A stretch of DNA of 64,000 nucleotides, taken from sequence record PQ724393.1. One strand, written 5' to 3'. Numbering within the stretch: position 1 is the stretch's first letter; the number at the start of each line of letters is the position of its first letter. The stretch is from a phage. The translations under genes and the position numbers were made by a program. Below are positions 13,204 to 61,554 of the stretch, piece by piece. The notes under the pieces are model-generated. The model was not told the origin of the DNA, did no database searches, and saw nothing but the letters and a program-made list of their open reading frames with translations.

Positions 13204-15327
13204 CTACATTTTGAATTTATTTGATAAAGAAGAGATATCCAAAGACGCTGCAAGGATTTCCATAGCCTCGTTGCTTTCAGAAACGGATTCATTAACCAAG
13301 AATTGACTGAACCCATCCATCAGGCGAACTTCACCGGTTTCCATCAAATGGTCACCATCGTAAACAGATTCACTGAGCTCTGAAGGAGGTGTTACGGTAG
13401 CTTCCATAAGGTATTTGTGAGATACTCTATCATTCATGGCAAAAGCCGCTACTTTATCAACCTTCAACAATAATCCACGCGGAAGGATAATTTCTGCTTC
13501 TTCGGCATATTCTGTAAGGTCACCAGGAGCGATAACTTTAACTGCTTCAGCACCTCGAATAACCATACCAATTTCAGCAATTCTATCCGCAGGACCTTCA
13601 GGTGCAATTGGATTACCGAACTCGTCTTCTTCCCATTCTACCTCTTCGTCATCGACTTCACCCACATCAGATGAACTACCGCTAGCCAATTTAAACAACT
13701 CATCAGCGGAGGATAAAGAACCTTCGCCGCCAACAAAAACGGCTTGGTTGTCGAGGGCCATATAATTTTTACCAAATTCACCAAAGATGTTAGGCTTTAA
13801 TGAGGCTGACACAAAGTTCTTAAAGTAAAATGTTTTGTTATCGATATTATGGCGCAGAATTTTGTATGGCAAATCCTGACCACGATACAAAATAGTACCC
13901 TTAGGAAGTTTAATACCCTTAGTAAATGCTGAGTCTAAATCCTTAATCAATTTAATAGCCGTTGTATTGTTTTCGGATTCAGGTTTACCTAAAAGGAATA
14001 AGTTCATAGGAGCATATTCAGCCGCGCAATATTCAATAATAGCATTGCTTTCGTCTTTGGTTAGGTCCTTAGGTTTAATGAGCTCGCCTGAATAAGCATA
14101 TGCATCACTAATAGAATCGTTAACCAGTTTATAAACGGCTTCCATAGCGAAAGCAATTCGAGAGGCCTTTTCTGAAGGGGAACCCTTAAAACGGGTACTC
14201 AGGTTATTAACAATTTTCTTAATAATATCCAGACTATTGGTTGTATTGATTTGCGAAAGACCACTTAAAAGTCTATCGACTTCTGTATTAAAAAATGCCA
14301 TATTATTAGAGTAAATTTCAAACCCTTGTTTATCTCTATTAGCATAATTTAGTTTAAATTTACTATCAGTCATTAAAGCGTGTGTGAGAGCAATAGTGTA
14401 TCTAAAGTTGGCAAGGTCCTCGCTCTTAGATTTAAACTGAGAAGCCTGGCGCATTTTAGTAATAGCACCTTTTTTAAAGTTCTGGCTAATCTGTTCAATA
14501 CCTTCATTCTCAGGGCCTTCAGCCGTGTGAACCGGTACAGAAGCTTCAAACTCGTTATAAACCTGCAATTCTTTAGGGGACAAAGTTTCAGGCTCAGCAG
14601 TAGAATACTGCGCGGCTGCTGCCATACGACGGGAAATCTTAGTACGGGTAATGACAGCCTTATCAGTACGTTTCTCTTCAACTTGTGCAATAGATGCCGC
14701 TACTGCTTCGACCTTACTTACGGCCTGGCCGGTTTTCTTAGAAACATACACTTCGCCAACTTTAGACTCAACTTTAGTATAAAGATCGGCATTAATTTCA
14801 GGCATACCCTTGATATCTTCAATATTAGCACCACGACGTACTAAAAGAACGTAGGTATGTTTTCCGCTGAATTGGAACATGTCGTCAACAACTTTAAACT
14901 TACCACCGGTACGAGCCATAGCCAAACGAGCTAATACGCGCTGAACGGTAGGGCCTTTACCTTTCATTTTCTTAGTAGGGAAACGGAATAAAACCGCGTC
15001 CATTTTAAGTTTGTTTATTTGTTCATATATGGTATCGAAAATGGTGTTCAGTGTACCGAGTGGATCGGTACCCAAACCGCCCTTGAGTTCTGCCGGAGCG
15101 CCTTTAGCAGATAAACTCATTAAGATAACATGGACGTACTTATCGCCCGCCTTAACCATCTTAATAGCGTCGCCTTCAGACGCATAAGATACCATACGTG
15201 CTACTAAATTGTCATTACCAGGAGCATGTACCGCAAAAATCTGCGGTACGCCTGAGCCAGGTTTAAGATTTGTTACTGGGTAATTTTTTTTATCGCTTTT
15301 ATCAAAAACTTCGTTTAAATTTTCCAT
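13204..15327 (-). CDS. alt: Alt-like ADP-ribosyltransferase, paralogue 1
   Basis: 707 aa; N-terminal ~235 aa shared with T4 Alt and the other two paralogues; C-terminal R-S-ExE signature (LYRGQ, FVSASLKP, EAEIILPRG). Confidence 0.85.
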   Translation of the reverse strand: MENLNEVFDKSDKKNYPVTNLKPGSGVPQIFAVHAPGNDNLVARMVSYASEGDAIKMVKAGDKYVHVILMSLSAKGAPAELKGGLGTDPLGTLNTIFDTIYEQINKLKMDAVLFRFPTKKMKGKGPTVQRVLARLAMARTGGKFKVVDDMFQFSGKHTYVLLVRRGANIEDIKGMPEINADLYTKVESKVGEVYVSKKTGQAVSKVEAVAASIAQVEEKRTDKAVITRTKISRRMAAAAQYSTAEPETLSPKELQVYNEFEASVPVHTAEGPENEGIEQISQNFKKGAITKMRQASQFKSKSEDLANFRYTIALTHALMTDSKFKLNYANRDKQGFEIYSNNMAFFNTEVDRLLSGLSQINTTNSLDIIKKIVNNLSTRFKGSPSEKASRIAFAMEAVYKLVNDSISDAYAYSGELIKPKDLTKDESNAIIEYCAAEYAPMNLFLLGKPESENNTTAIKLIKDLDSAFTKGIKLPKGTILYRGQDLPYKILRHNIDNKTFYFKNFVSASLKPNIFGEFGKNYMALDNQAVFVGGEGSLSSADELFKLASGSSSDVGEVDDEEVEWEEDEFGNPIAPEGPADRIAEIGMVIRGAEAVKVIAPGDLTEYAEEAEIILPRGLLLKVDKVAAFAMNDRVSHKYLMEATVTPPSELSESVYDGDHLMETGEVRLMDGFSQFLVNESVSESNEAMEILAASLDISSLSNKFKM
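14620..15327 (-). repeat. direct repeat: conserved 5' ~700 bp of alt paralogue 1
   Basis: roughly 80% nucleotide identity to 16669-17379 by eye; approximate boundaries. Confidence 0.6.
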
Positions 15328-15330
15328 TAT

Positions 15331-17379
15331 TTACCCTTGGGTGAATTTTTCTGGGGTTTCGTCAAAATTAATACATGAAGCTAAAATAGGCATTATATCC
15401 ACCTTGGTCGATTTGACGAATGAATCAAAAGACACAGGGTTGTCGGTCTCTGTTTCTACGCCTTGGTAAACAACCAATTCACCGGTTTCCATCAATGCAT
15501 CACCATCATAGATAACCGCATTTTCTGCTAGTTGGTCTGTGGTCTGGATATCGGCTTCCAATAATTTGGTGTTGTAGTTTCCTTTATATGAGGCATCAGT
15601 AATTTTAGTAATCTTAACAGTAGTTCCGCGTGGAAGAATAACCTCTTGTTCTGTTGGAGAACCTGACAATTCACCGGGCACAATTACGTTAATAGAGTCT
15701 GCACCGGAAATTTTCCAACCGATGTTCATCATTGTATTTTCGGAACTCGTCAGCATACTTGGAAGAACAATTTCATTATCGCCTTGGAAAGATGTCCCAA
15801 CGCGATAGTCCTGATGAACTGCGGCCATTGCGACGTTTGATACCCAGCCGCCAAAGATAATCGGCTTAAGGGACGTTGATACATAGTTCCTGAAATAAAA
15901 CAATTTTGAGTGTTTGATTTTATCAAAAGTGTTAACATTTAAATATTGACCACGCCAAAGTGTAATATCAGGTGGCAATTTATGGCCAATTTCAAATGCC
16001 GCATCCATATCATTAATTACTTCAATTACATGATGGCTATCAATGAATTCTGCATCCTCTTCATAATAATCACCCAACAAATAATTATTAACATCGGTAT
16101 AATATTGGCCGCAATAAGAAGAAATAGCCTCACGCTGCTCATACTCAAATCGATTATCACTATAACTGGCTGTAAAATGCATAACACTTTCTGAAGCTTC
16201 ATTAGCAAAGTCGGCAACAGCAGCACTTATACGTTGAGCATACTCTTGTTCCCAAAGCTCTGCTGCATATTCTGCCGCATCCATATTAGGAGGGGCCTCA
16301 TTCATTTTTCTTTCGATAAATGCAGCTTTGCGAAGGTTAAGAACCTCTGCACATGATTCGGCAAAAATCTGCATCTGCTTCATACTGCCGACAGGAGCAC
16401 GTTTAAGTTCACGATGCATACGGTTAAAAATTGGGTCAGAGTCTTCGACTCGAATTTCTTCTTTCCACACACCATTTGCTCGCATAGCCGTATCTGCCGC
16501 GCGCATACGCTCCATAGTATTCGTTTCAGAAGGTTGAATAAAAATTTCTAGTTCTTCATAATCATCGATAAGTTCCGCTGTTGCTGGGGCACTAAATTTT
16601 GATGCCTCTGCATCAATCTCATTCCAACCTTCCGGAACTTCATCTCGAGGAGAATACTGGGCTGCGGCTACAGCACGCCTAGAAATCTTGGTAGTGGTAA
16701 TAACAGCCTTATCCGTACGTTTTTCTTCGACTGCCGCTATACTAGCAGATAGTGCTTCTATTTTGGTTACTGATTGGCCTGTTTTCTTGGATACATAAAC
16801 CTCACCAACTTTAGACTCAACCTTAGTGTAAAGGTCTGCATCAATTTCAGGCATACCTTTTATGTCCTCAATATTAGCTTGTTTACGAACCAGTAAAACG
16901 TATGTATGTTTGCCTGTAAATTGATACATATCATCGACAACTTTAAACTTGCCGCCAGTACGAGCCATCGCCAATCGTGCCAATACACGTTGAACAGTAG
17001 GACCCTTACCTTTCATTTTCTTGGTAGGGAACCGGAAAAGAACTGCATCCATTTTAAGTTTGTTTACTTGTTCGTATACAGTATCAAAAATGGTATTCAG
17101 CGTACCAAGTGGGTCAGAACCTAACCCGCCTTTCAGCTCGGCTGGGGTACCCTTAGCAGACAAACTCATCAAAATAACATGAACATATTTGTCGCCAGGC
17201 TTAACCATTTTAATAGCGTCTCCTTGAGACGCATAAGATACCATACGAGCCACCAGATTATCATTACCTGGTGCTTGGATAGAGAAAATCTGTGGAACAC
17301 TGGAACCCGGTTTAAGATTTGTTACTGGATAGTTTTTAGCGGAATCACTATCAAAAACCTCGTTTAAATTTTCCATCAT
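15331..17379 (-). CDS. alt: Alt-like ADP-ribosyltransferase, paralogue 2
   Basis: 682 aa; same N-terminal module; ART motifs LWRGQ, YVSTSLKP, EQEVILPRG; unrelated central region. Confidence 0.85.
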   Translation of the reverse strand: MMENLNEVFDSDSAKNYPVTNLKPGSSVPQIFSIQAPGNDNLVARMVSYASQGDAIKMVKPGDKYVHVILMSLSAKGTPAELKGGLGSDPLGTLNTIFDTVYEQVNKLKMDAVLFRFPTKKMKGKGPTVQRVLARLAMARTGGKFKVVDDMYQFTGKHTYVLLVRKQANIEDIKGMPEIDADLYTKVESKVGEVYVSKKTGQSVTKIEALSASIAAVEEKRTDKAVITTTKISRRAVAAAQYSPRDEVPEGWNEIDAEASKFSAPATAELIDDYEELEIFIQPSETNTMERMRAADTAMRANGVWKEEIRVEDSDPIFNRMHRELKRAPVGSMKQMQIFAESCAEVLNLRKAAFIERKMNEAPPNMDAAEYAAELWEQEYAQRISAAVADFANEASESVMHFTASYSDNRFEYEQREAISSYCGQYYTDVNNYLLGDYYEEDAEFIDSHHVIEVINDMDAAFEIGHKLPPDITLWRGQYLNVNTFDKIKHSKLFYFRNYVSTSLKPIIFGGWVSNVAMAAVHQDYRVGTSFQGDNEIVLPSMLTSSENTMMNIGWKISGADSINVIVPGELSGSPTEQEVILPRGTTVKITKITDASYKGNYNTKLLEADIQTTDQLAENAVIYDGDALMETGELVVYQGVETETDNPVSFDSFVKSTKVDIMPILASCINFDETPEKFTQG
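16669..17379 (-). repeat. direct repeat: conserved 5' ~700 bp of alt paralogue 2
   Basis: see 14620-15327. Confidence 0.6.
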
Positions 17380-19464
17380 TTACCCTTGGATGAATTTTTC
17401 TGGGATGTCATAGAGGTCTATGCATGAAGCCAAAAGAGGCAATACATCAAACCGTGTAGATTTAACAAATGAATCAAAAGATACAGGGCTTTCGGAAGTA
17501 TCGAAGTCATCTTGATATACGACCAACTCGCCGGTTTCCATTAGTACGTCACCATCATATACCACAGATTCTTGAAGCTCATCTGTTGTCATAACTTCAG
17601 CTTGGATGAGTTTTGTATTACTAGATGTTGTTCCATCATTATTAGAAGAATCTGTTATTTTATTAACTTTGACCATTAATCCACGCGGTAGAATAACTTC
17701 GGCTTCAGTTGCTATTCCGAGATTTCCTGGATATACGACATTAACTTTATGAGCCCCATCAATAGCCCATCCTATTTGAACTTTAACATAATCAGGATTT
17801 TCTTTATATGCTCTTATTTCATTAGGATTAATAGTTATTCCTTCTTCATTTTTATCGACTGTCAATTCATTGCGAACTTCCGGTTCTAAAAGACCAATAC
17901 CTGCGTGGGTAACACCAAAACGTCCAAAAATGATAGGAGTTAAAGAAGTAGATACAAAATTTCTGAAATAGAACACTTTATTTTTAACTAGTGCTTCGTA
18001 TATAGGAGCAGTCATACTCTGAGCACGATAAACTGTGATGCCCTCTGGTATACGGTCGCCATTTTCAAAAGCAGAATCCAAATTATTAACCGCGGATTCG
18101 ATATCTTTTTCGCTCATAACCTCATAGTTCTGAGGATTATAACGTCCTAAAAGAAGATTATTTATGTCTGTATATCCTGAACCACAATATTCTCTGATGC
18201 CGCGCTTTTGTGATGGGGTATATTTAGAGCCCTCACGAGCAATAGTAATATCGACCATAATACCGCCACCCACACCAGCAAAACTATATACACGTTTTTT
18301 AATGAACTTGGTCTTGGCGGCTTTCCACTTCGCATCGGTCAATTCATTCCAGAGGTCGTCAGGTTGGCCTTTACGAGTTTTGTTATGCCATGCCAGCCAT
18401 TCACCTTTGTATTCTTCGAAAACGGTATTAATAGCAGAGGCATATTTTTCTAGAGCTTTAACAGATGTCAAAGGTTCGTTTTTGATGGCCGTAAGAATTT
18501 TATTTTTAATTTTCTCTTGGATTTCACCTATACCGTGAAGAGGAAACATTTTATAATCGTAATGCAATTCTTCAGCCGTGCCTTCAGCCACTATATTAGC
18601 AACCTTATTTTTAGCCGCAGGAGAATTGTTATTAGTAACCATTTCCTGAGCCTCAGGGATTAATGGAACTGTTGCAGGTTTATTAAAATCTGCTGCAGTA
18701 GCTTCATATTTCTTAAACAATTCACTTTCATTACGATAAGATTCCAATGATTGGCTTGCTGCAATGGCGCGCCTAGAAATCTTAGTCTTGGTTATAACCA
18801 TTTTATCAGTGCGACGTTCTTCAACCTTAGCAATACTGCCGGCAATAGCAGTTTCTTTAGTAACCTGCACACCTTCTTTTTTGGAAATATAAACTTCACC
18901 GACATCAGAATCTACCTTAGTATACAATTCAGCATTAATTCCAGGCATACCTTTGATATCTTCGATATCAGCTTGTTTACGAACTACTAAGATGTAAGTA
19001 TGTTTACCGGTAAATTGGTACATAGCCGGAACCACTTTAAAACGTCCACCGGTTTTCTGTGCTACCAAACGTTGGATAATCCGTTGGACAATAGGTCCTT
19101 GTCCTTTCATTTTCTTGGTAGGAAAACGGAACATCACGGCATCCATACGAAGCTTTTTAACTTGGTCATAAACCACATCAAAAATAGTATTAATCGCATC
19201 TACAGGAGTAGGGCCAAGGCCACCTTTAAGTTCGGCTGGAGTACCTTTAGCCGATAAGCTCATTAAAATTACATGAGCATATTTATCGCCTAATTTAACT
19301 TGTTTGATTGCGTCGCCTTCAGAAGCATAAGAAACCATACGTGCTACTAATTGGGACTCTACGCCACCAATCTTCCAAATCTGCGGTACTTTAAGTTTAG
19401 GGTTCAAGTTTACTGTAGGCAGTGTGCCTTCGGACTCAAACACTTCATTTAATTGTTCGGTCAT
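17380..19464 (-). CDS. alt: Alt-like ADP-ribosyltransferase, paralogue 3
   Basis: 694 aa; N-terminal module about 65% identical to paralogues 1 and 2; ART motifs VYRAQ, FVSTSLTP, EAEVILPRG; C-terminal tail shared with paralogue 2. Confidence 0.85.
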   Translation of the reverse strand: MTEQLNEVFESEGTLPTVNLNPKLKVPQIWKIGGVESQLVARMVSYASEGDAIKQVKLGDKYAHVILMSLSAKGTPAELKGGLGPTPVDAINTIFDVVYDQVKKLRMDAVMFRFPTKKMKGQGPIVQRIIQRLVAQKTGGRFKVVPAMYQFTGKHTYILVVRKQADIEDIKGMPGINAELYTKVDSDVGEVYISKKEGVQVTKETAIAGSIAKVEERRTDKMVITKTKISRRAIAASQSLESYRNESELFKKYEATAADFNKPATVPLIPEAQEMVTNNNSPAAKNKVANIVAEGTAEELHYDYKMFPLHGIGEIQEKIKNKILTAIKNEPLTSVKALEKYASAINTVFEEYKGEWLAWHNKTRKGQPDDLWNELTDAKWKAAKTKFIKKRVYSFAGVGGGIMVDITIAREGSKYTPSQKRGIREYCGSGYTDINNLLLGRYNPQNYEVMSEKDIESAVNNLDSAFENGDRIPEGITVYRAQSMTAPIYEALVKNKVFYFRNFVSTSLTPIIFGRFGVTHAGIGLLEPEVRNELTVDKNEEGITINPNEIRAYKENPDYVKVQIGWAIDGAHKVNVVYPGNLGIATEAEVILPRGLMVKVNKITDSSNNDGTTSSNTKLIQAEVMTTDELQESVVYDGDVLMETGELVVYQDDFDTSESPVSFDSFVKSTRFDVLPLLASCIDLYDIPEKFIQG
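18760..19464 (-). repeat. direct repeat: conserved 5' module of alt paralogue 3 (more diverged)
   Basis: protein-level conservation of residues 1-235; approximate. Confidence 0.45.
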
Positions 19465-19702: not shown

Positions 19703-21208
19703 TTATAGTCCAGTTTGAGACCAATCGCCAAATACATCTTCAAATGTATCAGCTTCTGTTTTATCGAAACGCCAACCTTTAATAATTGGAAGGAAAATAC
19801 CTACAGTATCAGTACGTCCTTTAGAATGAACCCAACCATTACATTCGCAGTCAGCAATACGACCAATCAATTTACCTTCACGGGCTTGTTTCATAAGAAG
19901 TTCACGGTCTAAATCAGGACGGTCTTCTAATGGAATCAATACCTTTTTACCTGATTTATCTTTCTTATGGGTGGTATCTTTAAAGCCTGAGCCACAGTCA
20001 CTTGTAATTCGACGACAACGTGATACCAATTCGACACCGCCAAGTTTGTTAGGGTCCTTCGAGTGTTCATAATAACCCACTACTTCTAAAGCGATATCGA
20101 TTACTTCTTTGAACTTGATAAGATTCTTAGAACGGCGGTTTTCCCAGTAGGAGTCCATGTTCTTAAGGATAATGCCTTCCAGGCCCTGGTCGACATATTT
20201 CTTATAAACGACTTTAGCTTCGTCAAGATTATTAACCCATTGCGTTTCTATAGGCTCGACACGTGTAAAACCTTCAGCCATTTGTACTAATGCCGCTAAA
20301 CGAACATCGTATTTTTGACCTTTAATTTTGCCTTCAGAATAAACTTCATCCAGTGGAACAAAGTCCCATGCCTGTAATACCATACCATCAGCTTCAGCTG
20401 GAGTAATAGTTCCTTGAAGAGCTTTATTAGCCAAACCATTTGAAGTAGAACGGTCGGCGACTGTCCGGAATTCCTTGGTTTTACTTAATTCCGGAAGTTC
20501 TTCATCAAACATACTAAACAAATCATTAGATGCTTTCGGTTCAACCTTAGGCGTGTGGTAAACTAATTCGCCATCAATCATAACACCATTAGGATGGCGC
20601 TGACGAGCTTCTTCAGTCATTTTAATAAGTTCGGCTGCAAGCTTAGTAAGCCCTTGATATTCATTACCACCGCGAGTAAGGAATGTTACCCCATCGTTAC
20701 GAACTTCAGCAAAACAACGGGCACCGTCAGCTTTTAATTGAGCGAACGCTGGCCATTTAATATTTTTCTTAATTAGAGCTTCGTCATAAGAACTAGCCAA
20801 CATCTGTGGTTGTTCAGGGATTAAACCTTTCCAAACCTTGTTAGCAATAGAAATCGATGCACCACATTCAAGGTCGCGCATCATTACACGACGTAGTACC
20901 TCAGCGTCTGGACCCTTGGCATCGGCGATAATTTGGGCAAGTTCTTCAATAGCAGCATTACCTGTAATCTTACGGGTTGCTAGTGTGAACTCAGCGAAAT
21001 CAAGAAGGTCTTCAAGTGTAATCATACCAAAGGATTGAGACGTAAATCCAGGTTCTGGCCACTTTTTGATGCCGTAGTTCAAACGACGGGTATAAGCCAT
21101 ACGATATACACGTTTCAGAAGCTCATTATCCTTTTCACGGGCAATAATAGCTTCTTTAGCTTTAGTAGAATCAATAGAAGCAATTTCGTTTAAAATATCT
21201 AAAATCAT
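19703..21208 (-). CDS. 30: ATP-dependent DNA ligase gp30
   Basis: 501 aa; adenylation motif KADGAR; size and position as T4 DNA ligase. Confidence 0.9.
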   Translation of the reverse strand: MILDILNEIASIDSTKAKEAIIAREKDNELLKRVYRMAYTRRLNYGIKKWPEPGFTSQSFGMITLEDLLDFAEFTLATRKITGNAAIEELAQIIADAKGPDAEVLRRVMMRDLECGASISIANKVWKGLIPEQPQMLASSYDEALIKKNIKWPAFAQLKADGARCFAEVRNDGVTFLTRGGNEYQGLTKLAAELIKMTEEARQRHPNGVMIDGELVYHTPKVEPKASNDLFSMFDEELPELSKTKEFRTVADRSTSNGLANKALQGTITPAEADGMVLQAWDFVPLDEVYSEGKIKGQKYDVRLAALVQMAEGFTRVEPIETQWVNNLDEAKVVYKKYVDQGLEGIILKNMDSYWENRRSKNLIKFKEVIDIALEVVGYYEHSKDPNKLGGVELVSRCRRITSDCGSGFKDTTHKKDKSGKKVLIPLEDRPDLDRELLMKQAREGKLIGRIADCECNGWVHSKGRTDTVGIFLPIIKGWRFDKTEADTFEDVFGDWSQTGL

Positions 21209-23257: not shown

Positions 23258-23272
23258 AATATTTTCCTCAAA

Positions 23273-23288
23273 GGAGGCCGAAGCCTCC
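23273..23288 (-). other. UUCG-tetraloop stem-loop between genes
   Basis: ggaggccgaagcctcc; identical copy at 61533-61548; sits directly upstream of an RBS. Confidence 0.5.
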
Positions 23289-23298
23289 ATTTTTAAGA

Positions 23299-23664
23299 TT
23301 AGATATCGAATTCATTCAGAACTACATCAAAGATTGCTTCCAGGTGTTCAGGTTTAGCTCGGTTGCTCAGGATGTGACGAATCCAGGTTTTAACCAGAAG
23401 CTTACGATTAGAACCGTTCCAGCAAGGATGGGTACCTAAATCACGTTGACGGAAATCGTCATCTAAAGCGATTTTAAAAGTAGAACCTTCCATAGTGATT
23501 GAAACCGTAATACCATTTTCAAAGCGCATGTAAACGTAGTTAGGAGTCATGCACTGTTCGATTTCACACACTGTACCGTTTTCGTGTTTCCACAGGCAAA
23601 TAACTTCGGAAGAACCAGCGATACCGTTAGAAACATATTTACGTTCGAAGTTGATGTAGTTCAT
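23299..23664 (-). CDS. hypothetical protein
   Basis: start moved to ATG 23664 (MNYINFERK) with GGAGAA RBS; 121 aa. Confidence 0.45.
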   Translation of the reverse strand: MNYINFERKYVSNGIAGSSEVICLWKHENGTVCEIEQCMTPNYVYMRFENGITVSITMEGSTFKIALDDDFRQRDLGTHPCWNGSNRKLLVKTWIRHILSNRAKPEHLEAIFDVVLNEFDI

Positions 23665-23705
23665 TTTTATTCTCCAGTTTGTTTTCGTATTATTTGGTAC
23701 AGGTC

Positions 23706-23735
23706 TATAATAACACAACCTGTACCAAAGTAAAA
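23706..23735 (-). promoter_or_regulatory. early promoter cassette (variant -35)
   Basis: part of a ~50-bp promoter-leader unit nearly identical to 24068-24120. Confidence 0.4.
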
Positions 23736-23738
23736 CAT

Positions 23739-24072
23739 TTATTTCACAACATTCCAATTTTTCATATCAAGTTTACCAACTTTTTTCATCTGGGCAATCA
23801 GACGTTCAGCGCGTGTACGGGCATTAACGTAATAGAATTCACCAATTTTGTTTTCTTCAATACGACCAGTAATTACAGTTTTCAGTTCATAAATCCAACC
23901 TGTAAAGAAGTTGTGAAGCTCGATGGTAAATGTGAAATCAGTAACCCATACCTTCAGTTGTTTCAACTTCGATGATATCACCTTCAACTGCAGTCAGGAC
24001 CCACATGGTTTCTTGATATTCACCGTTGAAACATTTAGCTTTAACAGATGCATTCAGATTTACAGTTTTCAT
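23739..24072 (-). pseudogene. frameshift-interrupted early ORF (44-aa N-terminal frame plus ~70-aa C-terminal frame)
   Basis: ATG 24072 with RBS reads 44 codons to TGA at 23938-23940; the long downstream ORF to 23739 is in the +1 frame; both frames open between 23938 and 23996. Confidence 0.4.
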
Positions 24073-24112
24073 TTTATTCTCCAGTTTGTTTTCGTATTAT
24101 TTGGTACATGTC

Positions 24113-24143
24113 TATAGTATCATGCCTACCGGAGATGTACACC
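24113..24143 (-). promoter_or_regulatory. early promoter cassette (variant -35)
   Basis: same conserved cassette geometry as the other early promoters. Confidence 0.4.
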
Positions 24144-24151
24144 TTTTTTTA

Positions 24152-24187
24152 AGATTTAGAAACAAAAATGGGACTCCGAAGAGTCCC
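24152..24187 (-). terminator. intrinsic terminator
   Basis: hairpin gggactccgaagagtccc (UUCG loop on - strand) followed by AUUUUUGUU. Confidence 0.55.
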
Positions 24188-24192
24188 ATAAC

Positions 24193-24354
24193 TTATGCCT
24201 GAGGCTTACCAAAGCAAGCAGCATCTGCACGCAATACTGCACGAGCACGAGCTTGAAGCTTATCAACTACCTGATTGATACGCTTGTTGGACGCACGCTT
24301 GTAACCAGCGCGTTTAGAGGTACCGTCAACTACTTTAACTTCTTTCTTAGCCAT
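24193..24354 (-). CDS. 53-aa basic protein
   Basis: ATG 24354; MAKKEVKVVDGTSKRAGYKRASNKR...; followed by the terminator; below ORF-table cutoff. Confidence 0.35.
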   Translation of the reverse strand: MAKKEVKVVDGTSKRAGYKRASNKRINQVVDKLQARARAVLRADAACFGKPQA

Positions 24355-24562
24355 TTTTAAATCTCTTAAATTAGGATGCAGGACTTATTGGCGTTGCCTG
24401 CGCAAGCCCTCAAGGGGAACATAGGTTTCGGATATTTAACGACAGGATAACCATAAACCTCGTCATCATACCGACCACGGCTTAGACAGATAACCTTTTT
24501 CTGACGCGTGATAGTACAAAATACATTCAAGAGGTACACCGTAAAACTGTTGGGGTCTTAAA

Positions 24563-24592
24563 ACTATAATGATTCGCAAATCATTAATCAAA
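24563..24592 (-). promoter_or_regulatory. sigma70-like promoter (TTGATT-N17-TATAGT) downstream of rIII
   Basis: - strand reads TTGATTAATGATTTGCGAATCATTATAGT. Confidence 0.3.
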
Positions 24593-24617
24593 CAGTTCGA
24601 CGGCTCCTCGATTTAAT

Positions 24618-29607: not shown

Positions 29608-29637
29608 ATTATACTCTGCTCCCAAGAGTTTGTAAAC
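29608..29637 (-). promoter_or_regulatory. early promoter (GTTTAC -35, TATAAT -10)
   Basis: GTTTAC-N18-TATAAT on - strand upstream of the pseT.1-position ORF. Confidence 0.4.
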
Positions 29638-38651: not shown

Positions 38652-38897
38652 TTATTTTTGAATTAAGCCCATATAAAATTTAGTGTCTTCCGGGTGCATA
38701 CCGTCGCAATACTCGTCAGCCATAAAGCGGGTAAGGTCTTCAAGAGGACCTTGGACTTCAATTTGCATACTACAGAATTGAGTATCTTTAATATGGGTCA
38801 CAACTAAAGAAGGATAACGATTACGGATAACTTCGTAAGTGTATTCAAAATCAACGATATCAATATTAACCTTAGCCATTTTATTTTCCTCACTCAT
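38652..38897 (-). CDS. hypothetical protein
   Basis: 81 aa; GAGGAAAA RBS; own promoter. Confidence 0.45.
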
Positions 38898-38911
38898 TAG
38901 TTGATAGGTCT

Positions 38912-38940
38912 ATAGTATCATGTTTAAAGGCGTTGTAAAC
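38912..38940 (-). promoter_or_regulatory. early promoter cassette
   Basis: GTTTAC-N17-TACTAT with TGn extension; near-identical to the 39597 and 56893 cassettes. Confidence 0.5.
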
Positions 38941-38942
38941 AT

Positions 38943-39215
38943 TTATTTTTGAATTTTATCAAGCCATTTACCAAGTTTAATCATTTCTTTGGTAGCTTTT
39001 TCCATACTTCTGAATTTAACCAGTAAAGGTTGTGAATCAACACCCATAACTAAGGTGGTTACAAGACTATGTTCACCTACAAGCCATAATGAATAAGTTT
39101 GGATATCGAGCCCGTAATTTCGGTCTTTATGAACTCGTACGCCCATAACTTCAAACTGTTCGCTGGCTTTTTCTACGGCATCCAGGAAATCATCTTTAGT
39201 CATGTTAAATTCCAA
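38943..39215 (-). CDS. hypothetical protein
   Basis: 90-aa ORF. Confidence 0.4.
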   Translation of the reverse strand: MEFNMTKDDFLDAVEKASEQFEVMGVRVHKDRNYGLDIQTYSLWLVGEHSLVTTLVMGVDSQPLLVKFRSMEKATKEMIKLGKWLDKIQK

Positions 39216-39567: not shown

Positions 39568-39596
39568 TTTTATTTCCTCATGTAGTTGATAAGTCT

Positions 39597-39625
39597 ATAG
39601 TATCATGTTTAAAGGCATTGTAAAC
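39597..39625 (-). promoter_or_regulatory. early promoter cassette
   Basis: GTTTAC-N17-TACTAT. Confidence 0.5.
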
Positions 39626-39627
39626 CA

Positions 39628-39661
39628 TTAAATGCCAAAAAGGGAAGACCGAAGTCTTCCC
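39628..39661 (-). terminator. intrinsic terminator after gene 32
   Basis: hairpin gggaagaccgaagtcttccc (UUCG loop) followed by UUUUUGG on - strand. Confidence 0.65.
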
Positions 39662-42940: not shown

Positions 42941-45900
42941 ATGGCCGATATTTTAAAACCTGCATTCCGTGCTACATCCGGACTCGATGCTGCGGGCGAG
43001 AAAGTTATCAATGTTGCCAAAGCCGATTACAATGTATTAGATGATGGCGTCAACGTTGAATTCTTTATAGATGAGAACACCATCCAGGCGTACGACGAGA
43101 CGCGCGGATATAAGAATGGGTTTGCCGTAATCCATGACCAACGTATCTGGGTTGCTCAACGTGATATCGCTGCACCAGCCGGAACTTTTGTACCTGGTTA
43201 TTGGACCGCTACCCGTACCGACCCTAAATGGATTACCGTAGCGTCTCCTACACGCCAGCTGGCTTCCGGTGAATATATTGCGGTGGATTCTGCTGCTAGC
43301 TTTACTACATTTACCCTGCCTCCGAACCCTACTGACGGTGATACAATCGTAATCAAGGATATTGGTGGTCGTGTAGGTTATAATGAAATTAAGCTCCAGT
43401 CTAGTTCTGCTCCAGGCGGCGGTAATCAGAAAATTGTTCGTTTTGGTAATCAGTTCACTGAGACCTTAATTACGAAGCCTTTTTCTTATAATATGATTAT
43501 CTTTGCCAACCGTTTATGGCATTTCTGGGAAGCAGCTAATGAAGAACGTGGTATTCGTGTAGAACCGAACACCGCTCAGTTCCAATCACAAGCGGGTGAT
43601 AACGTTTTGCGCCGTTATACTTCAGGTGCAGTAATTAAGTTTACTCTTCCTAAGTATGCGAACCAAGGTGATATTATTAAAACCGTTGATATCGATGGTT
43701 TAGGAAGTAAGTTCCACTTAATTGTAGAAACGTTTGATGCTTCGTCTGCATTAGGTAAACCTGGGCAGCATAGTATGGAATTCCGTACCTCCGGCGATGG
43801 ATTCTTTGTTTATAACTCTACCGAAAAATTATGGTATGTTTGGGACGGTGATCGTCAAACTCGTTTACGCGTAATTCGTGACGATGTTGAACTCTTGGCT
43901 AACGAAAGCGTTATTGTTTTTGGTCCTAATAACACGACACCACAGACAATTAATATCACATTACCTACAGGCGTAGCCCAGGGTGATGTAGTCAAGATTG
44001 CTCTGAACTATCTCCGTAAAGCTCAGACGGTAAATATTAAGGCCGCTGTAGGAGATAAAATAGCTTCTTCGGTTCAATTGCTCCAGTTCCCTAAACGTTC
44101 TGAATATCCGCCAGATACTGAATGGGTATTGAATGATGTATTGACCTTCAATGGTAACTTAAGTTATACTCCGGTTATTGAACTGAGTTATATTGAAGAC
44201 TCCACTACAGGTGGCAAATATTGGGTTGTTGCTCAGAACGTTCCTACTGTAGAACGTGTAGATTCTAAAGATGATTTAACCCGTGCTCGTCTTGGTGTTA
44301 TTGCTCTGGCGTCTCAGACCCAAGCAAACGTCGACCATGAAAATAATCCTGAAAAAGAACTGGCTATCACCCCACAGACTTTAGCCAATCGTGTAGCTAC
44401 CGAATCACGTCGTGGTATTGCTCGTATTGCTACTACTGCTCAGGTAAACCAGAACACAACTTTCGCGTTCCAGGACGATTTGATTATTTCTCCTAAGAAA
44501 TTAAACGAACGTACTGCAACCGAAACTCGTCGTGGTGTTGCTGAAATTGCTACGCAAGTTGAAACTGATGCCGGTGTTGATGATACAACCATTATCACTC
44601 CTAAGAAGCTACAGACGCGCCAGGGAACTGAAAGCCTGTCTGGTATAGTAAAATATGTATCTACCACAGGAACCACTCCTGCGACTTCTAGAGCAACTGT
44701 AGGTACTAACGTTTATAATAAGAACACAACTACTTTAGTTATTTCTCCTAAAGCTTTAGACCAATATAAAGCCGATCAAAATAACCAAGGTGCTGTATAT
44801 CTTGCTACGCAAGCCGAAGTTAATGCGGGTGCTACTAACCCAGGTTTTAGTAACTCGGTTGTCACACCTGAAACATTGGGTGCTCGTCGTGCTACTGATA
44901 CTAATCATGGTTTAATTGAAATTGCTACGCAAGCAGAGACTGATACTGGAACTGATTATACTCGTGCGGTAACGCCTAAGACGTTAAATGACAGGAATGC
45001 TACTCAAACACTTACTGGTATTGCTCGTATTGGTACTCAAGTAGAATTTGATGCAGGTGTATTAGATAATGTTATTTCAACTCCGTTGAAAGTTAAAACA
45101 AGATTTAATGATACTGCTAGAACTTCTGTCTCAGCAGCCAGTGGTTTGATTGAATCAGGAACCTTATGGAACCATTATACACTAGATATCCGTGAAGCAA
45201 GTAATACTCAACGTGGTACAGCTCGTTTGGCGACCCAAACTGAAGTTAATACTGGTACCGATGATAAAACAATCATCACTCCGCTTAAGCTTCAAGCTAA
45301 AAAGGCTACCGAAAACGCTGAAGGTATTATCCAACTCGCTACTCAGGCCGAAGTTATTGCGGGTACGATAAGTAATAAAGCGTTTAGTCCCAAGCATTAC
45401 AAATATGTCGTCCAACAGGAAAAATCCTGGGAAGCTACTTCTGCTCGTAGAGGATATGTTAAATTAACCACAGGTACCGCCACTTGGGAAGGCGATGATA
45501 CTAATGGCTCTGTTGCTAACCTGGCTAAATTTGAAGACGATGGTTTTGCTATTTCACCACTTCAGATGAACACCGCATTAACTCACTATCTTCCTATTAA
45601 AGGTAAGGCTTTTGACTCCGATAAATTGGACAACCTGGATAGCTCTCAGTTCGTCAGGAGAGATATCGACCAAATAGTTGAAGGAACATTAACCCTTCGT
45701 AAAAACATCAGAATCGATGGCCAGTTAACTACAGGTGGTACAGGTGAGTTTGGTGGTTCTTTAGCTGCTAATTCTACATTTACTATTCGTAATACAGGTG
45801 CTTCAACTCGTTTGGTATTTGAAAAAGGACCACAAACTGGAAATAACCCGTTTCAAACCATGAATATCCGAGTATGGGGTAACCAGTTTAGCGGTGGAAG

Positions 45901-58587: not shown

Positions 58588-58748
58588 TTCTTGACCAAGG
58601 CTTCCAGAAATTTAACGATTGCATCAATTACGAACCAAGTGCAAATAAATCCAACAGCGAAAGGACCTGGAACCCACACACCAGCAGCAAAAAGGGTTAC
58701 CCACACAATAACAATCACGAGCCAGATAAAAGTATAAATCGGTAGCAT
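58584..58748 (-). CDS. 54-aa membrane protein (ac position)
   Basis: GAGGAAAAT RBS; two predicted transmembrane segments. Confidence 0.35.
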   Translation of the reverse strand: MLPIYTFIWLVIVIVWVTLFAAGVWVPGPFAVGFICTWFVIDAIVKFLEALVKK

Positions 58749-58758
58749 ATTTTCCTCA

Positions 58759-58836
58759 TTAGCGTCCGAAGACGCCTTTAGTTTTAAGATTGTTACGATA
58801 GAACTGCATCACATGTTCGTTATGGAAATTACTCAT
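58759..58836 (-). CDS. stp: Stp peptide (EcoprrI restriction inhibitor / PrrC anticodon-nuclease activator)
   Basis: 25-aa [28 protein letters not shown] matching T4 Stp as recalled; ATG overlaps the ndd stop (TAATG). Confidence 0.7.
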
Positions 58837-61321: not shown

Positions 61322-61519
61322 TTACTCACCGAAATAAGAAATACGAACCTCTAAACAATGAGCATAAGCACCCATCGCATCCAGTTGTGAAATAAGTAAC
61401 CCTTGTTGACGGATATCGAGAGTTTCAAAAACACCGCCTTTAATAAAGGTTTCTAGTGTATTAATTTTAAGAACCAACTGGTCGTATTCTTCAACTACAC
61501 GTGCTTGGTAACCTAACAT
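61322..61519 (-). CDS. hypothetical protein
   Basis: 65 aa; AAGAGGAAATT RBS directly after the stem-loop. Confidence 0.4.
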   Translation of the reverse strand: MLGYQARVVEEYDQLVLKINTLETFIKGGVFETLDIRQQGLLISQLDAMGAYAHCLEVRISYFGE

Positions 61520-61532
61520 AATTTCCTCTTAG

Positions 61533-61548
61533 GAGGCCGAAGCCTCCA
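61533..61548 (-). other. UUCG-tetraloop stem-loop after rIIB
   Basis: ggaggccgaagcctcc, identical to 23273-23288. Confidence 0.5.
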
Positions 61549-61554
61549 ATTAGT

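Follow-up and report, generated by a model that had tools for sequence, protein, structure and literature searches.

Predicted early-promoter cassettes with near-identical downstream halves, probably of the PeSL type, flank gene 30.8 in a Dhakavirus

We analysed a 64-kb stretch of phage DNA (PQ724393.1; hereafter the window) around a locus whose genes all lie on the minus strand, in the order rIII, 30.9, a terminator hairpin, cassette B, 30.8, cassette A, 30.7, a further hairpin and 30.6 (Table 1). Identity of the region reaches 99.4% with Escherichia phage fDHCT2, its closest relative, and 96–98% with Bp7, WG01, JS98 and other members of Dhakavirus (T4-type phages), and on this similarity we assign the window to a Dhakavirus, that is, a JS98/Bp7-like T4-type phage. 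The order 30.9-30.8-30.7 is the same in T4 and is thus ancestral. The genes that follow the two cassettes encode proteins of different families (30.8, phrog_1507 and PF06019; 30.7, phrog_1582 and PF06919) which give no BLASTP alignment with each other at E≤100, in agreement with the original prediction that two unrelated ORFs lie behind the copies of a duplicated promoter-leader-start element.

Table 1. Positions of genes, hairpins and cassette components at the 30.8 locus (window coordinates).
Feature	Coordinates	Strand	Description	Basis
rIII	24866-24618	-		
Gene 30.9 homologue	24193..24354	-	53 aa, upstream of cassette B; annotated 30.9 in JS98/Bp7	ORF; phrog_1427
Intrinsic-terminator-like hairpin	24158..24189	-	ATGGGACTCTTCGGAGTCCCAT then T-run; stem-loop component of cassette B	Terminator scan
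Cassette B promoter	24114..24142	-	Predicted; -35 GTGTAC/TGTACA, 17-nt spacer, TGn-extended -10 TACTAT (24119-24114)	
Repeat copy B	24068..24122	-	-10, predicted start region GACATGTACC, unstructured A-rich leader	
Repeat copy B, signals	24082-24079; 24072-24070	-	SD GGAG; ATG	
Gene 30.8 homologue	23739..24072	-	T4-type allele, broken by one extra T	PF06019
Cassette A promoter	23707..23735	-	Predicted; -35 TTTTAC, 17-nt spacer, TGn-extended -10 TATTAT (23712-23707)	
Cassette A hairpin	23693..23729	-	TTTGGTACAGGT / ACCTGTACCAAA, -10 inside 13-nt loop; stem-loop component of cassette A	
Repeat copy A	23660..23715	-	-10, predicted start region GACCTGTACC, same leader as B	
Repeat copy A, signals	23675-23672; 23664-23662	-	SD GGAG; ATG	
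Gene 30.7 homologue	23299..23664	-	121 aa	ORF; PF06919

Gene 30.8 is interrupted in this phage. JS98, Bp7, QL01 and IME08-independent relatives read GGGTAC where the window reads GGGTTAC. The additional T (23943/23944) sits 128 nt inside the gene and leaves a product of 44 aa followed by an out-of-frame remainder; an intact 333-nt ORF is found in JS98, Bp7, QL01 and fDHCT2. A 37-nt query across the T insertion had no match in 50,697 phage records, and the exact frameshifted string is absent from IMG/VR, in which the intact string occurs in 5 contigs. Programmed frameshifting was considered and rejected, as the local reading (GGT TAC TGA) has no slippery motif, the frame of the relatives is uninterrupted and the extra T is unique. 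The frameshifted partner ORF that had been linked to the cassettes is real as a feature of the record, but the link does not hold: the lesion is a private 1-nt insertion well inside the gene, which we take to be either a private mutation or a sequencing error unrelated to the cassettes, and annotation should treat it as such.

The two cassettes share a direct repeat. A repeat search within the window aligned 23665-23715 with 24072-24122 (51 nt, 48 of 51 identical), and the fuller extent of the repeat is about 55 nt (23660-23715 against 24068-24122), with three substitutions and one 1-nt indel. The near-identity initially proposed thus stands, although the estimate of about two differing positions was too low. 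On the minus (coding) strand the unit reads TG[T/A]TA[T/C]TATAGAC[C/A]TGTACCAAATAATACGAAAACAAACTGGAGAATAAA[A/-]ATGAA; the content first described (-10, leader, RBS and ATG) is present in both copies, with the correction that all of these features lie on the minus strand. The three substitutions cluster at the -10/+1 (start-site) end and the indel falls in the A-run just 5' of the ATG, where the extra A of copy A is common to the window and fDHCT2; the remaining 38-nt leader is identical in A and B. Homology ends just upstream of the -10, and the -35, spacer and stem-loop halves of the two cassettes are unlike (TTTTAC-N17-TATTAT in A, TGTACA-N17-TACTAT in B), so that, as a second correction, what is shared runs from the -10 to the ATG and does not include the -35 and spacer. 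In a comparison of the window with itself, a 47-nt pattern with up to 3 mismatches matched the two repeat copies only; it gave 0 hits in 100 dinucleotide-preserving shuffles, with a chance expectation of 0, and the repeat that was anticipated from such a comparison is accordingly significant.

Repeats are also found elsewhere in the window. The largest direct repeats belong to three tandem paralogues of about 2 kb each at 13204-19464 on the minus strand (707, 682 and 694 aa), which are Alt-like, carry an ADP-ribosyltransferase domain (PF03496) each and lie just downstream of the DNA ligase gene (19703-21208). A coding sequence at 44396-45267 contains in-frame repeats of 39-77 nt that are 61-82% identical (repeat families D4 and D10) and suggest a structural protein with a recurring peptide motif.

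Early promoters of this general type recur across the window. The pattern TTTAC-N17-19-TAYWAT is matched 12 times where 1.37 matches are expected, always on the minus strand, and a relaxed scan yields about 14 cassettes with an SD and an ATG, which bears out the claim of at least 12 recurrences. A significant hairpin surrounds the -10 in 5 of the 14 (cassette A and those at 29636, 38650, 60105 and 59362). Most members of the family are alike at the consensus blocks only, namely the -35, TGnTAnTATAGACCT and GGAG...ATG (repeat families D3, D5 and D6), and the pair at 30.8 and 30.7 is unusual among them in that the non-consensus leader is shared too. Just downstream of the gene 32 homologue, the minus strand carries a second near-identical pair of early promoters (38894-38945 and 39579-39630), separated by 685 bp and with 92% identity over 48 nt; this pair shares the segment from the -35 to about +12 and has unlike SD regions, the reverse of the situation at 30.8 and 30.7. 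Another repeated intergenic cassette, at 23259-23292, 58747-58780 and 61518-61551, consists of a GC-rich hairpin of the GGAGGCTTCGGCCTCC type followed directly by GAGGAAAATATTATG; it joins a terminator-like stem to the RBS of the next gene and is also present before 30.6 in T4.

PeSL cassettes have been described in RB49/phi1 (Arbiol et al., 2010; PMC2839356) and in PST/T4 and nt-1/KVP40 (Comeau et al., 2014; PMC4122927). Their layout comprises an upstream stop codon, an AT-rich tract, a T-even-type early promoter, a stem-loop, an SD and a start codon, and in T4 and PST the promoter reads TTTACW-N17-TAYWAT, with the stem-loop often placed between the boxes or over the -10 (PMC2839356; PMC4122927). 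Comparison with this layout supports the assignment of both copies at the 30.8 locus to it, and the match with PeSL cassettes that had been suggested is upheld both by the anatomy and by exchanges and a deletion in relatives that end inside these cassettes (see below). Cassette A has TTTACT-N17-TATTAT with a TGn extension and scores 9/12 in a sigma-70 scan. The TGTACA-N17-TACTAT of cassette B, also with TGn, is a weaker match; it is missed by strict promoter patterns and scans and found by the relaxed scan only, and its agreement with the consensus is moderate. In cassette A the TAA stop of 30.8 lies 3 nt before the -35, within the AT-rich GAAATAAATG, and in cassette B the AT-rich tract TTTTTGTTTCTAAATCTTAAAAAAAGG separates the terminator from the -35. 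Both cassettes end in GGAGAATAAA(A)ATG, that is, GGAG, 6-7 nt and ATG. On these motifs we predict promoter activity and a start site for each cassette, near 24107 in B and near 23700 in A; the T4 records NC_000866 and AF158101 carry no annotated promoter features here, and a literature search found no published transcription-start mapping for these sites in this phage or in T4.

The stem-loop of cassette A is a 12-bp stem that encloses the -10 (fold -18.8 kcal/mol, z -4.67). It has no T-run on its 3' side, which makes a terminator role doubtful. Cassette B is preceded instead by a terminator-like hairpin with a T-run (fold -18 kcal/mol, z -4.5) that is invariant across 5 Dhakaviruses, and a hairpin overlapping its promoter was not significant (z -1.55). 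From their structure and position the hairpins may serve as terminators or attenuators, and that at 24158..24189 would insulate cassette B from rIII/30.9 transcription. Folding the leader from its predicted start gave 0 kcal/mol, which is not an improvement on shuffled sequences, and an Rfam search of the region returned no match at E≤1; a structured cis-regulatory RNA leader (riboswitch, thermosensor or protein-binding hairpin) was rejected on these grounds.

Both cassettes are present in every Dhakavirus examined, and fDHCT2 has the same arrangement with 30.8 intact. The exact leader occurs in 2 copies per genome and, in phage records and IMG/VR, is confined to Dhakavirus plus JM10, the IMG/VR occurrences being Dhakavirus isolates; we therefore rejected a dispersed mobile element. 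The 30.7 promoter and its GGTACAGG...CCTGTACC stem are conserved in T4 and other Tequatroviruses, Mosigvirus (p000v, ST0), Gaprivervirus (SP18, VR20) and Dhakavirus. The core of this stem is essentially invariant and the sole change seen, CTTGTACC in one relative (L027), is G-U compatible; the -35 of cassette A is TTTTAC here and GTTTAC in other genera, and the stretch of about 20 nt between the A stem and CTGGAG has a genus-specific sequence. The upstream region of 30.8 is of three types (T4, SP18 and Mosig/Dhaka), and the GTGTACA...TGATACTATAGAC arrangement of the B promoter is also found at 30.8 in SP18 and at Klebsiella phage gp183. The latter was considered as a 30.8 homologue with its own leader and was rejected, since it has no similarity to 30.8 and belongs to a different PHROG (phrog_6496).

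In T4 and Gaprivervirus the regions upstream of 30.8 and 30.7 are not alike. The Mosigvirus cassettes already have TAYTATAGACNTGTACCA and CTGGAGAATAAAATGAA in common, with middles that are unlike, and only in Dhakavirus are the middles of the two leaders identical (AAATAATACGAAAACAAACT). Because only this leader middle of about 20 nt is specific to the genus, a single ancestral copying event is suggested, and the simplest reading would be that, in the ancestor of Dhakavirus, copying or gene conversion took place once between blocks that the cassettes already shared. The Mosigvirus and Gaprivervirus leaders are ambiguous as to the direction, from B to A or from A to B. Private variants are found in A and in B (in B, G to T in QL01 and IME281 and G to A in IME08), which indicates that the copies now drift independently with no ongoing homogenisation; in IME341, B reads GACCTG as A does, and a later conversion is possible there. 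In the Dhakavirus contig IMGVR_UViG_2706795356 (170,473 nt; L033 / L014), cassette A keeps the shared leader and CCAAAGGATAATAAA replaces CTGGAGAATAAA before the 30.7 start, so that a small patch holding the Shine-Dalgarno sequence has been exchanged.

Recombination that ends within the cassettes is recorded in the relatives. Through 30.9 and on to the SD-ATG of cassette B, IME08 matches JS98 at 97-100% identity. Its 30.8 coding sequence then has 40-60% identity to JS98 and 90-97% identity to Gaprivervirus SP18, and 100% identity with JS98 resumes from the -35/stem of cassette A onward. By the informative sites, the left crossover falls in the 19 nt of CTGGAGAATAAAATGAAAA, which span SD to start, and the right one in the 18 nt of TTTACTTTGGTACAGGTT, which span the -35 and the 5' stem arm. 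IME08-type phages thus carry a Gaprivervirus-like 30.8 allele, acquired by replacement across genera. The two 30.8 alleles are homologues, with 40% amino acid identity and the same Pfam family; the imported type is found in 190 records, and about a dozen of these, including IME341, are at least 95% identical to the allele of IME08. Cassette type and 30.8 allele type are unlinked across genera: a Mosig-like cassette B goes with the T4-like allele in JS98 and with the other allele in p000v. In SP18 an additional gene, 30.6A, lies between two similar terminator hairpins at the position of cassette B.

A deletion is seen in Mosigvirus JM10, in which 30.9 is joined directly to 30.7 through one chimeric cassette, without 30.8. 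The JM10 cassette follows Mosigvirus B (terminator, -35 and spacer) up to TGTGTTA and is identical to the Dhakavirus-type A from the -10 on. The two types meet in the loop of the A hairpin; the Dhakavirus-type patch reaches about 100 nt into 30.7, after which the sequence is of Mosigvirus type again. Departures from Mosigvirus B are limited to a terminator loop that is inverted and an A/T tract that differs by 1 nt. The inversion, at the centre of the terminator hairpin after 30.9 (L011, about 1727-1744), reads GGGAGACCGAAGTCTCCC in JM10 against GGGAGACTTCGGTCTCCC in p000v (L008), an outcome that a hairpin-mediated template switch would give. Among the 729 records matching the junction region, JM10 alone has 30.9 and 30.7 contiguous and no other genome lacks 30.8. 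JM10 has the form expected of the deletion product of recombination between neighbouring cassettes; it shows no circle. In nearly all of the approximately 730 T-even records 30.8 sits between the cassettes, and the locus is by that token not very plastic.

The adjoining intergenic region also varies among the relatives. The rIII-30.9 spacer is 163-397 nt long (24355-24617 in the window; 1265-1616 in L001, 55-451 in L007 and 1584-1910 in L004). An insertion of about 150 nt, with no tRNA or Rfam match, is common to JS98 and SP18 and absent from the window, Bp7 and T4, and at the rIII end IME08 carries additional sequence of another kind; the spacer forms a second mosaic hotspot adjoining the cassettes. 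Upstream of 30.9, a block of about 95 nt (24362-24455, minus strand) is almost invariant in T4, Mosigvirus, Gaprivervirus and Dhakavirus (including L006, L008, L007 and L011). Three 1-nt indels break any long reading frame in this block, and searches for Rfam families, tRNAs and compensatory pairs were negative; a possible micro-ORF of 18 codons (MFPLRACAGNANKSCILI) in the block stops 10 nt short of the 30.9 start.

We consider these data best explained, with a probability of roughly three in four, by two early cassettes of the PeSL type that flank 30.8, with downstream halves made alike once in the lineage of Dhakavirus and with conserved blocks that act as homology patches. Each cassette would supply a T4-type early promoter for host sigma-70, a short A-rich leader that lacks structure, a strong GGAG SD and the start codon, so that 30.8 and 30.7 would each be transcribed from a promoter of their own and translated from essentially the same initiation region; the putative terminator hairpin precedes cassette B and the strong hairpin of A encloses its -10. 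A single round of copying or gene conversion in the ancestor of Dhakavirus, between the shared blocks TAYTATAGACNTGTACCA and CTGGAGAATAAAATGAA, would account for the near-identity of the copies. These blocks would offer the recombination system of this highly recombinogenic phage short patches of homology through which an ORF can be replaced or removed with its expression signals left intact. Crossovers in conserved blocks may be no more than ordinary homologous recombination, which takes place wherever identity exists and calls for no special property of the cassettes. Going further, the hairpin-bracketed -10s and the start block TATAGACNTGTACCA might be recognition sites for a phage-encoded factor that targets exchange or co-regulation (it could be a recombination helper, a nuclease or a regulator of early transcripts). 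We regard this as a long shot; if true, it would make the cassettes site-specific shuffling elements and not passive homology patches.

In the main alternative, the identical leader would be a selected cis-regulatory element that co-regulates 30.8 and 30.7, for example through a translational repressor or endoribonuclease target or a start-site operator, with recombination there being incidental. The 38-nt leader is identical between the copies in almost all of the Dhakaviruses examined, TATAGACNTGTACCA and GGAGAATAAAATGAA recur before unrelated genes, including Klebsiella gp183 in another genome region, and GGAG in the Shine-Dalgarno sequences of early genes is a known target motif of T4 RegB, all of which such selection would accommodate. 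However, genera differ freely in the middle of the leader in front of the same genes, individual phages tolerate single-base variants and even a replaced SD segment, the leader has neither predicted structure nor an Rfam match, and its conservation within Dhakavirus is not above that of the flanking coding DNA (97-100%). We therefore hold selection on the leader to be rather unlikely as the cause of the identity.

The proposal with which this analysis began, that the pair reflects a recent cassette-mediated insertion or replacement in this genome tied to the frameshifted ORF, was prompted by the close similarity of the copies and by the broken neighbour gene. The comparison of genomes contradicts it and leaves it very improbable: the gene order is the ancestral one found in T4, all close relatives, including the 99.4% identical fDHCT2, have both cassettes and an intact 30.8, and the frameshift is a single extra T inside the ORF that is found nowhere else. 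Scarcely credible, finally, is the idea that the repeat is the remnant of a tandem gene duplication, with 30.8 and 30.7 as diverged paralogues that kept a common 5' region. The two genes are adjacent, similar in size and in the same orientation, and ATGAA follows the repeat in both, but the paralogy was rejected because their proteins have no detectable homology and fall into separate Pfam and PHROG families, as given above, and because the unlike upstream regions in T4 and Gaprivervirus make the identity derived and not ancestral.

The kind of element and its proposed role are already published (PMC2839356; PMC4122927), and the 30.8/30.7 pair is a new example; neither the pair nor the IME08 and JM10 events are mentioned in PMC4122927. 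The PeSL idea, in which regulatory cassettes double as recombination linkers, offers a way for T4-type phages to swap accessory genes and keep the expression signals. It rests on few phage pairs, to which this locus adds a case resolved to the base in a fourth T-even group, and a single pair of cassettes displays an allele replacement across genera, the precise deletion that left JM10 a chimeric cassette, and a homogenisation of the leader in the ancestor. With 407 bp between direct repeats of about 50 nt, a deletion or mini-circle should be measurable, and phages whose alleles can be told apart are available as natural donors.

Compared with published PeSL cassettes, the pair has the same layout, the same kind of position between small non-essential early ORFs and similar replacements, insertions and deletions among close relatives (the allele replacement in IME08/IME341, the JM10 deletion and the SP18 30.6A insertion), and the JM10 junction in the loop of the A hairpin corresponds to that reported for the RB49 mini-circle. 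It differs in that near-identity is limited to the half from the -10 to the ATG, with -35s, spacers and stem-loops that are unlike between A and B, in that the stems are not of the G-run/C-run type seen in RB49, and in that the gene between the cassettes is not an ORFan but a widely conserved family with two allele types. With ordinary T4 early promoters the pair has in common the -35 and -10 motifs, the 17-nt spacing, the TGn, the location on the early-transcribed strand and the GGAG-type SD that follows. The consensus of those promoters, described by Liebig and Rueger in 1989, is said to comprise a GTTTAC -35, an extended -10 and a conserved start region; ordinary members are alike at the consensus only, whereas the pair studied here is identical over a 38-nt non-consensus leader. 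A further parallel comes from the internal-protein (IP) genes of T-even phages, which are reported to be shuffled between regulatory motifs conserved on either side (Repoila et al., 1994, cited in PMC2839356 and PMC4122927). By those accounts the IP cassettes lie at another locus and hold unrelated genes, in place of the two alleles with 40% amino acid identity found here, but in both systems alternative coding segments are exchanged at a conserved promoter/leader sequence and the expression signals are kept.
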